From NCBI RefSeq assembly GCF_058153355.1, contig NZ_CM177019.1: 64,000 bases of DNA; one strand, written 5' to 3'. Shown in pieces: positions 59,216 through 64,000 of the stretch. The notes under the pieces are model-generated. The model saw only the letters and a program-made list of their open reading frames with translations. It did no database searches and was not told where the DNA came from. Made by a program: the position numbers and the translations under genes. Within the stretch, counting starts at the first letter, position 1. Each line of letters opens with the position of its first letter.

Positions 59216-59248
59216 AGGCACACTTATCTGGGTGTGCCTCTTTTTTTT
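59216..59248 (+). terminator. candidate Rho-independent terminator just upstream of the recombinase gene
   Basis: aggcacac-ttatctgg-gtgtgcct hairpin followed by cttttttttac. Confidence 0.45.
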
Positions 59249-59268
59249 ACAACTGTACACGGTGGCGT

Positions 59269-59889
59269 ATGACGAGAAAATATCTCACACAGGATGAAGT
59301 CTACAGGCTGATGGATGCAGCCCAGAGCATGTCCTTTCCTGAAAGAAATCGCTGTCTAATTATGATGGCTTTCATTCACGGTTTTAGGGCCAGTGAACTT
59401 CTTGATTTACATTTATCCGATATTGATGCATCAGGAAAACAACTTAATATTCGGCGTATTAAAAATGGTTTCTCGACAACACATCCTCTTCTTCCTGATG
59501 AATATAATTTGATCAAGTTGTGGCTTAAGCAGAGGAAGTTAATTGAAAATGGAGTTGAAGGAGACAGGCTTTTTCTCTCCCGGAAACGCCGCCCTATCAG
59601 CAGACAACATTTTTTTTCGATCATTCGTGAGGCAGGAAGACGTGCAGGATTAGCTGTAAAAGCACATCCTCATATGTTACGTCATGCCTGTGGATTTGCT
59701 CTGGCTGACAATGGTGTCGATACCCGACTACTTCAGGATTATCTGGGTCATCGAAATATTCAGCATACTGTCAGATACACAGCCAGTAATGCTGCTCGAT
59801 TTAAAGGGGTGTGGAAAAAAAGCCTCGTTAAAACAGTACCTTCTGATTCAAAATGTCAGATTCCTACGTTTGCCTCAATTCTTCCATAA
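59269..59889 (+). CDS. FimB/FimE-family tyrosine recombinase
   Basis: ORF 59212-59889; start at MTRKYLTQDEV...; motifs shared with FimB (CFIHGFRASE, HPHMLRHACGFALA, LGHRNI, YTA). Confidence 0.85.
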   Translation: MTRKYLTQDEVYRLMDAAQSMSFPERNRCLIMMAFIHGFRASELLDLHLSDIDASGKQLNIRRIKNGFSTTHPLLPDEYNLIKLWLKQRKLIENGVEGDRLFLSRKRRPISRQHFFSIIREAGRRAGLAVKAHPHMLRHACGFALADNGVDTRLLQDYLGHRNIQHTVRYTASNAARFKGVWKKSLVKTVPSDSKCQIPTFASILP

Positions 59890-60131
59890 AAAAACAGCCC
59901 ATTCAATTAAATAAAACACATAACATGTTGATATTTCTCGCTAAAGTAAAATAACCCCATGATTTGAAATGATTAACCATAAAGGTCATACCAGTGGTTA
60001 ACTTTCACCCACTCTGTTAAATAACACAAAATTAAAAACAATAAAAGTAATAAAAATTAGATTTATATTCCAAGAAAATTAAATATTCAGGTAATTAAAC
60101 CAAACCTGACATTTTGAATCAAAATGTCAGG
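59843..60131. promoter_or_regulatory. candidate invertible DNA switch: ~245-bp AT-rich segment flanked by 16-17-bp inverted repeats
   Basis: ctgattcaaaatgtcag (59843-59859) is the inverse of ctgacattttgaatca (60106-60121, 16/17 match); the right repeat lies in a 27-bp palindrome (60105-60131) followed by tttt, 30 nt upstream of the LuxR-type ORF. Confidence 0.45.
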
Positions 60132-60160
60132 TTTTGTAGCAATGGCGTGGACGAGTCTGA

Positions 60161-60955: not shown

Positions 60956-61108
60956 CACAGCAGCGTTGTTACTACCCCCCACTGCGGCGCATACGGACTC
61001 GCTACAGTGTAGGAGCCAAAATATTTCTACTGCTCTGGGCTGCAGGATTGGGAGGCACGCTGTACAGCCTGTACAGCGTGCTGGCGTACTGACATCTGTG
61101 AGGGAAGG

Positions 61109-61870
61109 ATGCGTTTCGTTCTTTTCTGTCCCTCAGGAATTGTACCAGCGCAGTTCGCAGCTCTATCAACCGGTTCTGTCGGCAATGTTACCTGCATTGG
61201 AACAGAAGAGGAGTTACGCAATAAATTGCGGCACAGGCCACAGAGTGTCGTGATATCGGCAGGGCGACCTGCCGAATGCGCTGAAATGTGGTTCCGATTT
61301 TATCGGGATCACTCATTCGTGGTGGTGTTGTGCGTCGCGCCCTTTTTTCTGCCACCGGATGTGAGTATTTCTGGCGTTCTCAAAAACCTGAGGTTACTGA
61401 AACCAGGAATGTCAGTAGAGCATGTCATCAGTATTGCAAATGCCTCTGGTGGGTTTTCAGGGCTGAAACATGCAGAAATTTTGCCAGTTATGGACAGTTA
61501 CTCTGTCTTTATGAAAGAGGTGAATAACCGCACAAAGACAATCGTCATGTCAGAACGCTTCCCGGAAAAGCAAAAGAAGGTGTTGTCGTTGCTTCTTGCC
61601 GGACACAGCTGGGAATACAGTGCGCAGTTTCTCAAAACGGGGATAAGACAGATATGGCTTGCCGAGCAGTCGCTAAAAAAGCGTTGGGGAATACCGGACA
61701 GCATGTCATTGCGGGAAGCCCTGCTGCTGAGCAGCAATAAATTTCACGGTGATGGAAATGCATTGGAAGAAACGAATGCCATGACATTGCGTGAAAACGG
61801 AAATACCAACAGGTATTCCGTGGTGGTAAATGCAGGGACGCAGGCTTTATCTCTGCATAAATATAAATAA
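61109..61870 (+). CDS. second putative regulator with degenerate LuxR-like C-terminus
   Basis: 253-aa ORF with GAGGGAAGG Shine-Dalgarno; C-terminal KKVLSLLLAGHSWEYSAQFLKTGIRQIWLAEQSLKKRWGI. Confidence 0.55.
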   Translation: MRFVLFCPSGIVPAQFAALSTGSVGNVTCIGTEEELRNKLRHRPQSVVISAGRPAECAEMWFRFYRDHSFVVVLCVAPFFLPPDVSISGVLKNLRLLKPGMSVEHVISIANASGGFSGLKHAEILPVMDSYSVFMKEVNNRTKTIVMSERFPEKQKKVLSLLLAGHSWEYSAQFLKTGIRQIWLAEQSLKKRWGIPDSMSLREALLLSSNKFHGDGNALEETNAMTLRENGNTNRYSVVVNAGTQALSLHKYK

Positions 61871-61911
61871 GTGGGAAATTGAAATTAGTTACCAGAATGG
61901 AGAATTTCTTC

Positions 61912-64000
61912 ATGAAAAACAGTAAGGCATTTTACCGCAGCGCATTAGCGACAGCTATTGTTATGGCTCTTTCTGCACCAGCATTCGCTGCTGATAACGC
62001 GGTATCAACTACACCGGTTAAGTTGGATAAAAATAAGACGATTCTGGATCAAGATGTTGTTATTAACGGTGATAACAAGATTACAGCCGTAACAATTGAA
62101 ACGTCAAATTCAGATAAAGATCTTAATGTTACTTTTGGCGGTCACGATATTACCGCCGCATCAACGGTAGACCAAGGTTTCGTTGAAGGTGTAAAAGTTA
62201 GCGGTGACAAAAATGTTGTGATTAATGCTACAGGCTCCACCATCACAGCTCAAGGCGAAGGCACCTATGTCCGGACTGCAATGGTCATTTCTTCTACTGG
62301 CGATGTTGTTGTTAATGGCGGTAATTTCGTTGCAAAAAATGAAAAAGGTAGTGCGACAGGGATATCTCTGGAAGGGGCCACGGGAAATAATGTCACGCTC
62401 AATGGCACAACCATAAACGCTCAAGGTAATAAGAGTTCCAGCAACGGCTCTACGGCAATTTTTGCTCAAAAGGGTAGCGTATCGAATGGTTTTAACGGTG
62501 ATGCAACCGACAACATTACCCTTGCTGGCTCAAACATTATTAATGGTCGGATTGAAACAATAGTTACTGCCGGGAATAAGACGGGAATTCATACAGTCAA
62601 CCTGAATATTAAGGATGGCTCAGTAATTGGGGCGGCTAATAATAAACAAACAATTTATGCCTCTGCTTCGGCACAAGGCGCAGGTTCAGCAACGCAAAAT
62701 TTAAATTTGTCTGTTGCTGATTCAACCATCTACTCTGATGTCCTGGCCCTTTCTGCAAGCGAGAATTCAGCCGGTACCACAACAAATGTAAATATGAACG
62801 TTGCCCGCTCTTACTGGGAAGGTAATGCTTATACGCTCAATAGCGGCGATAAAGCGGGTAGTGATCTGGATATAAATCTTTCCGATAGTTCAGTCTGGAA
62901 AGGCAAAGTTTCAGGGGCAGGAGATGCCAACGTATCTCTGCAAAACGGGTCTGTCTGGAATGTTACGGGTTCCTCAACTGTTGATGCTCTGGCAGTAAAA
63001 GACAGTACGGTTAATATCACTAAGGCTACAGTCAATACTGGCACGTTTGCTTCTCAAAACGGCACTCTGATTGTTGATGCCTCTTCTGAAAACACTCTGG
63101 ATATCAGCGGTAAAGCGAGCGGTGACTTGCGTGTTTACAGTGCGGGTTCATTGGATCTTATCAATGAACAAACGGCATTTATTTCTACCGGCAAAGACAG
63201 CACTCTAAAAGCCACAGGCACAACGGAAGGTGGTCTGTATCAATATGACCTGACACAGGGAGCTGATGGTAACTTTTATTTCGTAAAAAACACGCATAAA
63301 GCATCCAACGCCAGCTCCGTGATTCAGGCAATGGCAGCTGCTCCGGCTAACGTCGCTAATCTGCAGGCTGACACGCTCTCCGCCCGTCAGGATGCTGTCC
63401 GTCTGAGCGAAAATGACGAGGGTGGCGTATGGATTCAGTACTTTGGCGGTAAACAGAAACATACCACCGCAGGAAATGCATCCTATGACCTGGATGTAAA
63501 CGGTGTAATGCTGGGTGGTGATACCCGCTTCATGACTGAAGATGGTAGCTGGCTGGCCGGTGTGGCGATGTCTTCTGCGAAAGGTGACATGACCACCATG
63601 CAGAGCAAAGGTGACACTGAAGGTTACAGCTTCCACGCTTACCTGAGCCGCCAGTATAACAACGGTATCTTCATTGATACTGCTGCACAGTTTGGTCATT
63701 ACAGCAACACGGCAGATGTTCGCCTGATGAATGGTGGCGGTACCATCAAAGCTGACTTTAACACCAATGGTTTCGGTGCGATGGTTAAAGGTGGTTACAC
63801 CTGGGAAGACGGTAATGGCCTGTTTATTCAGCCATATGCCAAACTGTCTGCTCTGACTCTGGAAGGTGTGGATTATCAGCTCAACGGCGTGGACGTTCAT
63901 TCTGACAGCTATAACTCTGTGCTGGGTGAGGCCGGTACGCGCGTGGGTTATGACTTCGCTGTGGGCAACGCGACCGTTAAACCTTATTTAAATCTGGCCG
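61912..64000 (+). CDS. autotransporter (type Va) adhesin-like protein, 5' part; continues beyond window end
   Basis: ATG 61912 with GGAGAA Shine-Dalgarno; signal peptide MKNSKAFYRSALATAIVMALSAPAFA; glycine/asparagine/threonine-rich repetitive passenger; frame open to position 64000; end shows autotransporter-junction-like motifs. Not in the ORF track because it has no stop in the window. Confidence 0.8.
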   Translation, partial: MKNSKAFYRSALATAIVMALSAPAFAADNAVSTTPVKLDKNKTILDQDVVINGDNKITAVTIETSNSDKDLNVTFGGHDITAASTVDQGFVEGVKVSGDKNVVINATGSTITAQGEGTYVRTAMVISSTGDVVVNGGNFVAKNEKGSATGISLEGATGNNVTLNGTTINAQGNKSSSNGSTAIFAQKGSVSNGFNGDATDNITLAGSNIINGRIETIVTAGNKTGIHTVNLNIKDGSVIGAANNKQTIYASASAQGAGSATQNLNLSVADSTIYSDVLALSASENSAGTTTNVNMNVARSYWEGNAYTLNSGDKAGSDLDINLSDSSVWKGKVSGAGDANVSLQNGSVWNVTGSSTVDALAVKDSTVNITKATVNTGTFASQNGTLIVDASSENTLDISGKASGDLRVYSAGSLDLINEQTAFISTGKDSTLKATGTTEGGLYQYDLTQGADGNFYFVKNTHKASNASSVIQAMAAAPANVANLQADTLSARQDAVRLSENDEGGVWIQYFGGKQKHTTAGNASYDLDVNGVMLGGDTRFMTEDGSWLAGVAMSSAKGDMTTMQSKGDTEGYSFHAYLSRQYNNGIFIDTAAQFGHYSNTADVRLMNGGGTIKADFNTNGFGAMVKGGYTWEDGNGLFIQPYAKLSALTLEGVDYQLNGVDVHSDSYNSVLGEAGTRVGYDFAVGNATVKPYLNLA

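Follow-up and report, generated by a model that had tools for sequence, protein, structure and literature searches.

Positions 59216 to 64000 of a 64,000-nt stretch of contig NZ_CM177019.1 (RefSeq assembly GCF_058153355.1; the whole stretch is hereafter referred to as the window) raise the question of whether a recombinase gene, a short AT-rich segment bounded by inverted repeats, and the regulatory and adhesin genes that follow them make up a phase switch and, if they do, whether this switch has been seen before and which states it can adopt. On the plus strand, this region contains four open reading frames (ORFs) that all run in one direction (206, 264, and 253 codons, followed by one that leaves the end of the window). 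We find that the region is the pathogenicity island PAI-X, which comprises ipbA (also called fimX or hbiF), the invertible element hyxS, hyxR, hyxA, and hyxB (upaB) and lies beside betA. The element in the window is almost certainly the hyxS phase switch of this island, flipped by the IpbA/FimX recombinase encoded upstream of it and controlling hyxR. It is already known, so that its detection in the bare sequence is a rediscovery of an experimentally characterized phase switch; the only part that may be new is a third, excised state and its structural basis.

Identity of the locus

A 2.7-kb query (positions 59200 to 61900) matched 1,911 of the 5,426 complete Escherichia coli genomes with 95 to 99% identity. 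The RefSeq names on the matching DNA are ipbA (annotated as “also known as HbiF and FimX”), hyxR, hyxA, and hyxB, and the window copies of ipbA, hyxR, and hyxA show 98.4 to 99.2% nucleotide identity to the E. coli alleles. In E. coli genomes, these genes are arranged in the order betB-betA-ipbA-hyxR-hyxA-hyxB-ykgH. The window agrees with this order from betA, which ends at position 58107, upstream of ipbA, to hyxB; the ykgH side falls past the end of the window. The first-pass annotation, made from the sequence alone, had pointed to a resemblance to the FimX/HyxR locus. This was correct: the RefSeq gene names, the betA-ipbA-hyxS-hyxR-hyxA-hyxB order, and the 16-bp repeats, which match those published for hyxS, identify the two as the same locus. 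Compared to hyxS of E. coli PAI-X, the window differs in that the core genes of its host are only about 94 to 95% identical to those of any complete E. coli genome and in that its ipbA carries a frameshift in a run of seven A residues (A7) that extends the gene into the switch.

For uropathogenic E. coli, the hyxS switch is textbook material, and the hyxS/FimX switch of E. coli PAI-X was reportedly described by Bateman and Seed in 2012 (strains UTI89, CFT073, and EC958). In published experiments, hyxS is an invertible element next to fimX that has 16-bp repeats, is inverted by FimX only, and controls the LuxR-type regulator HyxR through its orientation (PMC6083910, PMC6458436). Both hyxR and hyxA influence the O-antigen chain length and serum resistance, and hyxB encodes the adhesin UpaB (PMC3789825). 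Inversion at hyxR has also been observed in phage-selected clones (PMC12361893). A gentamicin-evolution paper that mentions hyxB deals with point mutations, which are unrelated to the switch (PMC12282228).

Inversion in public genomes

The flip was modeled by reverse-complementing positions 59860 to 60105, and a 578-nt probe of each version was compared with the 5,426 complete E. coli genomes. The native probe was covered end to end in 1,780 genomes and the flipped probe, in one piece, in 15. In the alignments, sequence identity is intact through the left repeat, is gone across the inner segment, and comes back exactly at the right repeat. The chicken isolates GPEC1035 and GPEC1031 show no mismatches in the 4,151 and 4,166 bp that flank the switch, and the inner 246 bp of one are the exact reverse complement of those of the other. 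Orientation heterogeneity had been singled out beforehand as the test that could overturn the idea of a switch; both orientations are found among public genomes, with the breakpoints located exactly at the repeats, and the proposal of a fim-type invertible element is thereby upheld. Among the carriers of the locus, 94% have the orientation of the window, 0.8% have the flipped one, and 4.8% have the switch excised; the native, flipped, and excised forms together account for 1,886 of the 1,891 genomes with any match.

In 6 of the 15 flipped genomes, ipbA is truncated by insertion sequences (IS), and all six have the same orientation, which is consistent with FimX being needed for flipping back. 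The dependence of hyxS inversion on FimX comes from the literature (PMC6083910, PMC6458436) and not from the window data. The six genomes are those of E. coli 2018-10-2CC and five similar ones, in which the truncated 5' end of ipbA lies beside copies of IS66/ISEc8 and IS100. The 2018-10-2CC lineage has a divergent allele (about 94% identical), in which the switch is fixed in the flipped orientation.

Several points weigh against the identification of the window element as a working hyxS switch. The inversion is seen at the population level, that is, in other genomes and not in the strain of the window itself. There is no convincing sigma-70 promoter in the element in either direction (a consensus scan found none, and a weighted scan gave weak candidates on both strands). 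Furthermore, the ipbA gene of the window has a -1 frameshift and ends in a 22-residue foreign tail, which could be due to a homopolymer sequencing error.

Architecture of the recombination sites

The features of the locus are listed in Table 1. The inverted repeats, which the first-pass annotation had put at 16 to 17 bp, are real and form a perfect match of 16 bp; a 17th pair is missing, as position 59843 does not pair with position 60122, and with the flanks included, the match extends over 33 nt at 82%. The AT-rich segment, previously given as about 245 bp, is indeed present, and its exact size is 246 bp. Within the island, divergence is highest in this inner segment (95.2% identity over positions 59934 to 60183). 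With up to 2 mismatches allowed, the 16-mer is found at three sites in the window against 0.08 expected, and none of 100 shuffled sequences reached three copies. The third copy overlaps the right repeat and corresponds to the outer arm of the right site. Together, the two form the palindrome, described earlier as 27 bp long; it is in fact a perfect palindrome of 33 bp, which can also be written as 19-nt arms that match at 95% over positions 60099 to 60137.

Table 1. Features of the hyxS locus in the window
Feature	Positions	Strand	Basis
Terminator-like hairpin (10 pairs, 5 of them G-C) followed by a T8 run	59216-59248	+	Sequence scan
ipbA (fimX, hbiF), FimB/FimE-type tyrosine DNA invertase, 206 aa in the window	59269-59889	+	NCBIfam, RefSeq name
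A7 homopolymer (A8 in reference alleles), frameshift site	59815-59821	+	Alignments, junction listings
Left inverted repeat of hyxS, TGATTCAAAATGTCAG	59844-59859	+	Repeat search; inversion breakpoint here
Invertible inner segment of hyxS, 246 bp, 26.8% G+C	59860-60105		Exact reverse complement in GPEC1035 versus GPEC1031
Best sigma-70-like candidate in the element (-35 TTGAAT, 17-nt spacer, -10 AAGAAT)	59878-59906	-	Position-weight scan, score 7.8
Perfect 33-bp palindrome formed by the right repeat and the third copy	60102-60134		Repeat search, folding
Right inverted repeat of hyxS, perfect reverse complement of the left one	60106-60121	-	Repeat search, alignments
Third copy, TGAATCAAAATGTCAG, in direct orientation, 15/16 identical to the left repeat	60115-60130	+	Repeat search, excision junctions
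hyxR, LuxR-family regulator, 264 aa	60161-60955	+	Pfam GerE, RefSeq name
hyxA, 253 aa, predicted receiver-like domain and LuxR-type helix-turn-helix	61109-61870	+	RefSeq name, AlphaFold2 model
hyxB (upaB), autotransporter adhesin, cut by the end of the window	61912-64000	+	TIGR01414, 6BEA, RefSeq name

Two inverted arms around a short center are the usual layout of the core sites of tyrosine recombinases, such as loxP, FRT, and dif. When the hyxS repeats are divided in this way, the left repeat would consist of a 7-bp crossover region, TGATTCA, and an inner binding arm, AAATGTCAG. The right site would then be a complete symmetric core site, CTGACATTT-TGAATCA-AAATGTCAG, and the left site would have one perfect and one degenerate arm, AGTACCTTC-TGATTCA-AAATGTCAG. 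The 7-bp centers of the two sites differ at the middle base only.

In the proposed mechanism, IpbA/FimX would recombine the two 16-bp inverted repeats and flip the 246-bp AT-rich segment between them. The alternative is that the repeats are merely a terminator hairpin accompanied by a chance partial copy and that no inversion takes place. In favor of this reading, the hairpin to which the right repeat contributes one half is very stable (-21.7 kcal/mol, z = -4.5), and a simple terminator scan flags it as terminator-like. It does so on the minus strand only; on the plus strand, the stem is not followed by a T-tract, and the hairpin forms alike in both orientations (-21.7 kcal/mol in the native and -19.8 kcal/mol in the flipped one, or -23.3 and -19.8 kcal/mol in a second fold). 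A chance copy also sits poorly with the number of 16-mers in the window, with the 15 genomes that carry the exact flip, including the two otherwise identical chicken isolates that differ by it alone, and with the published experimental inversion (PMC6083910, PMC6458436). The flipped genomes and the breakpoints at the repeats refute this reading, which retains next to no probability. A narrower suggestion, in which the palindrome would serve as a terminator in only one orientation of the switch, has also been discarded, given the similar stability of the stem in the two orientations and the lack of a T-run after it on the plus strand.

Excised form of the switch

In addition to the two orientations, the survey of complete genomes revealed a form of the locus that lacks the switch. 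A 61-nt junction probe was fully covered in 91 E. coli genomes, all of which lack exactly 271 bp, from the left repeat to the third copy. The remaining single site carries either T or A in its center: a 42-nt T-center junction probe, built to give no seed match in native genomes, assigned 19 of the 91 genomes to the T type, and about 72 are of the A type. The excised junction is not confined to E. coli. A scan of species-representative genomes for IpbA detected only one locus outside that species, in Escherichia sp. MOD1-EC7003, where a single TGAATCAAAATGTCA links ipbA to hyxR. The annotation of the excised genomes shows intact ipbA, hyxR, hyxA, and hyxB genes; the distance from the ipbA stop codon to the hyxR start is 58 nt (versus 329 nt when the switch is present), and the hairpin is lost (-8.9 and -10.6 kcal/mol). 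One of the strains with an excised switch, avian-pathogenic E. coli (APEC) E12049, also has its betA gene split by an insertion of the IS4-like element ISVsa5.

Close relatives with and without the switch could be compared directly. Clone D i14 (excised, T type) has no differences from CFT073 (native) in 2.3 kb of the flanks, and D10 and 13P477T (both excised, A type) show no mismatches to GPEC1031 (native) over 4,522 and 4,539 bp. Strains Trh52, A24, SA186, SCU-485, and FDAARGOS_1303 carry the excision on other allele combinations. Altogether, excision is found on at least 8 haplotypes, with at least three of the T type and five of the A type. An excised ancestor into which hyxS was inserted later was considered and ruled out: identical haplotypes (no differences in about 9 kb) occur in the native, flipped, and excised forms, and the excised form is therefore a derived state. 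No report of the 271-bp excised state was found in the literature searched, which left Bateman and Seed 2012 and Bateman et al. 2013 beyond its reach.

As to how the segment is lost, hyxS may have three states, with FimX also excising the switch through recombination between the left repeat and the outer arm of the right site, which lies in the same direction. We propose this tentatively and rate it somewhat below an even chance. The outer arm of the right site duplicates the left repeat in direct orientation, so that the same sites can also recombine as direct repeats. Pairing of the left repeat with this arm would remove 271 bp and leave a single hybrid site; the near-palindromic center, TGA(T/A)TCA, would be the feature that permits both inversion and excision. 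Such an excision would be irreversible and would place hyxRAB 58 nt behind ipbA, with neither the AT-rich segment nor the hairpin between them.

The main competitor of this proposal is a loss of the 271 bp by replication slippage or by short-homology recombination between the direct copies, aided by the palindrome and not involving FimX, an explanation that we consider a serious one, with a probability just short of one-half. Direct repeats of 15/16 nt that lie 271 bp apart, next to a 33-bp palindrome, are a classic slippage substrate. The same repeats could equally give rise to RecA-independent replication slippage, which counts against a role of FimX, and the occurrence of both T and A junctions is compatible with slippage as well. 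A structural-variant screen performed after FimX overexpression in UTI89 and CFT073 reports a peak of hyxS inversion and mentions no deletion there (PMC6458436). Against slippage, the breakpoints fall in the very sequence used by the adjacent recombinase, and the event is recurrent, having occurred on 8 or more haplotypes as well as in a second species. The distribution of the junction types bears on the same question. For an A-type junction, the crossover must fall in the first 3 nt of the repeat; five of the eight haplotypes are nevertheless of this type, whereas evenly placed crossovers predict about 80% of the T type (binomial p of about 0.01 for five A-type haplotypes out of eight, with the independence of the haplotypes assumed). 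This is weak evidence; a heteroduplex spacer, which should yield both types (50:50), accounts for the 3:5 ratio of T-type to A-type haplotypes somewhat better than uniform crossovers. That FimX, rather than replication slippage, makes the excision is what we infer, at the tentative strength given above.

Recombinase gene and its frameshift

The product of ipbA belongs to the tyrosine-type DNA invertases, with scores above the cut-offs of two NCBIfam models (243 bits for NF007370, cut-off 221, and 237 bits for NF007371, cut-off 222). The catalytic residues of this family, R-H-R-Y, are all present and, as assigned by motif position, correspond to R40, H135, R138, and Y170; Xer recombinases from PDB match IpbA across the region that contains them. 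The FimB/FimE-family recombinase ORF reported by the first-pass annotation was therefore placed and named correctly. The terminator-like hairpin at positions 59216 to 59248 precedes the start codon of ipbA by only about 20 nt, and its sequence is kept in E. coli Z1323; an ipbA transcript from any upstream promoter would have to read through it.

The 3' end of the gene is unusual. The A7 run at positions 59815 to 59821 corresponds to A8 in the aligned E. coli loci, which amounts to a -1 frameshift. The reference protein encoded by the A8 allele has 187 aa, ends in ...GVWKKKPR, and is terminated by a TAA codon equivalent to positions 59829 to 59831, 12 nt before the left repeat. In the A7 allele, the ORF continues for 19 more codons, into the switch, and a 22-residue tail takes the place of the final 3 residues of the 187-aa form. 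The observation that the left repeat lies inside the end of the recombinase gene thus holds for the window allele; in normal alleles, IpbA stops before the repeat, and the overlap arises because of the A7-for-A8 frameshift, which is peculiar to the window allele. A 61-nt probe found the A7 allele in 3 of the 484 genomes that it matched (one O157:H7, MEI003, and MN06021). The missing A may reflect a rare mutation or an error in sequencing the homopolymer, and a slippage-prone tract is also possible. If the A7 run is real, the C terminus of IpbA would depend on the orientation of the switch, ending in ...CQIPTFASILP in one case and in ...CQVWFNYLNI in the other.

This frameshift could mean that the switch, although a known one, is locked in the strain of the window through inactivation of IpbA by its 22-residue tail. 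The A7 run differs from the A8 run of the aligned E. coli loci and is rare, as would be expected of a defect, and FimX is, according to the literature, the sole recombinase that acts on hyxS (PMC6083910, PMC6458436). Still, R40, H135, R138, and Y170 are all encoded upstream of the frameshift, only the last 3 of the 187 residues are changed, and the A7 run may be a sequencing error in the first place. The related recombinase IpuA has two natural C-terminal forms, depending on the orientation of its switch, and the authors of that work suggest that the shortened form may stay active (PMC6083910). We consider a locked switch improbable; the frameshifted IpbA presumably retains its activity.

Orientation and promoters

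The flip would switch transcription of hyxR between high and low, as described in the literature, and the downstream genes hyxA and hyxB (upaB) are probably affected as well. The reference strain CFT073 has the orientation of the window (93% identity in the same sense versus 56% in the reverse sense), and derivatives of CFT073 that lack fimX have been described as “hyxS locked OFF” (PMC6083910). On these grounds, the orientation shared by CFT073, the window, and most carriers probably corresponds to the OFF state as published.

The best promoter candidate within the element is located on the minus strand (Table 1), with a predicted -35 box at positions 59906 to 59901 and a -10 box at positions 59883 to 59878. 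It is conserved in four alleles and falls below the 9-of-12 threshold of the consensus scan. At present, this candidate faces ipbA; after flipping, it would face hyxR. Its placement resembles the mapped promoter arrangement of ipuS, a related switch of CFT073 (PMC6083910).

Downstream genes

The LuxR-type regulator noted at position 60161 proved to be one: HyxR contains the GerE helix-turn-helix (HTH) domain of Pfam at residues 135 to 181 (E value of 3.9e-6), has matches to the HTH domains of RcsB and PdeL in PDB, and is named hyxR in RefSeq. The autotransporter adhesin farther downstream was also correctly recognized, as the hyxB product matches the TIGR01414 barrel (E value of 7e-51) and the UpaB structure 6BEA (E value of 1.2e-259).

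The case of HyxA, listed earlier as a second regulator-like ORF, is split between its predicted fold, which supports such a role, and sequence searches, which do not. HyxA has no Pfam match and no PDB match by either sequence or profile search, and there is no NCBIfam model matching either HyxR or HyxA. The two proteins show no significant similarity to each other (BLASTP E value of 0.29; hhalign E value of 0.12, with the match located on the HTH of HyxR). An AlphaFold2 model of HyxA built from 12 homologs (predicted local distance difference test [pLDDT] score of 76.9, predicted template modeling [pTM] score of 0.72) contains a (βα)5 domain followed by four helices. When this model was compared with PDB using Foldseek, the top 34 matches were response regulators of the NarL/FixJ type, including VraR, FixJ, RcsB, LiaR, and DesR. 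Reading the sequence against the model, we found neither the phospho-acceptor Asp at the end of strand 3 nor the acidic pair that should follow strand 1; the two strands have the sequences VVISAGRP (strand 3, residues 47 to 54) and FVLFCPSG (strand 1), and there is no Asp in either. Because these positions are nonacidic, the predicted domain could be at most a pseudo-receiver, and HyxA would, according to the model, combine a pseudo-receiver with a LuxR-type HTH in a NarL/FixJ-like arrangement. The HyxA family is small, with 28 cluster representatives among 1.84 billion proteins.

Related switches

A close parallel in layout is the ipuS switch of CFT073 with its recombinases IpuA and IpuB (Battaglioli et al. 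2018, PMC6083910). Like hyxS, it combines a Fim-type recombinase, an invertible element of roughly 260 bp, a gene for a LuxR-type regulator (ipuR), and an autotransporter gene (upaE). The ipuS repeats are 7 bp long, versus 16 bp in hyxS, and ipuS is flipped by four recombinases (PMC6083910), or by all five if they are overexpressed (PMC6458436), whereas hyxS is flipped by FimX only. The distal repeat of ipuS is located within the recombinase gene, so that inversion alters the C terminus of the enzyme (PMC6083910). The frameshifted allele of the window would do likewise; in normal hyxS alleles, unlike ipuS, the recombinase gene ends before the repeat.

The fimS switch of type 1 fimbriae relies on FimB and FimE, which belong to the same recombinase family according to NCBIfam, and also consists of a short invertible promoter segment that adjoins a recombinase gene. 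It differs from hyxS in its 9-bp repeats, which enclose 314 bp, and in driving a fimbrial operon. In published comparisons, the half-sites of fimS and hyxS show little sequence similarity (PMC6083910, PMC6458436). A further relative is the T1-antigen switch of Salmonella, in which STM0716 shares 72% identity with FimX and STM0718 shares 39% with HyxA (PMC11294581). The STM0716-STM0718 module contains a 269-bp invertible promoter with repeats that are reported to be identical to those of PAI-X and are described as 9 bp long; it drives a polysaccharide gene cluster and not an autotransporter (PMC11294581).

Host lineage and transfer of the island

The core genes next to the island point to a host outside typical E. 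coli. Over 18 kb of such genes (the yah-bet region with yah, betT, betB, and betA, positions 40000 to 58350 of the window), the best match among the 5,426 complete E. coli genomes was 94.9% identical, and the betB-betA segment is 93.6% identical to that of E. coli Z1323, versus 98.4 to 99.2% for ipbA, hyxR, and hyxA (positions 59185 to 61933). Because the island genes are 98 to 99% identical to those of E. coli and the core genes only about 94 to 95%, horizontal transfer is suggested. Judging by these identities, the window appears to belong to a divergent Escherichia lineage whose PAI-X, nearly identical to that of E. coli, was acquired or exchanged; this points to a recent horizontal spread of PAI-X beyond typical E. 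coli.

The AT-rich 1.1-kb spacer between betA and ipbA (positions 58108 to 59184) is the least conserved stretch, with 73 to 87% identity to E. coli Z1323. It contains two imperfect copies of the motif TTGTAGAAAAA(A)YCGCRCA, located about 30 nt apart, near positions 59074 and 59104. Of the six other loci compared, GPEC1031 and Trh52 have the first copy without any change; in the remaining four, no match with up to 3 mismatches was found.

Implications

The FimX-controlled epigenetic state of this locus has been linked, through HyxR, to nitrosative-stress tolerance, survival in macrophages, O-antigen chain length, and serum resistance, and the downstream product UpaB is an adhesin. If FimX is what makes the excision, the third state of hyxS would show how a reversible switch becomes hard-wired, and strains that have lost the switch would form a separate expression class in studies of hyxR and upaB.

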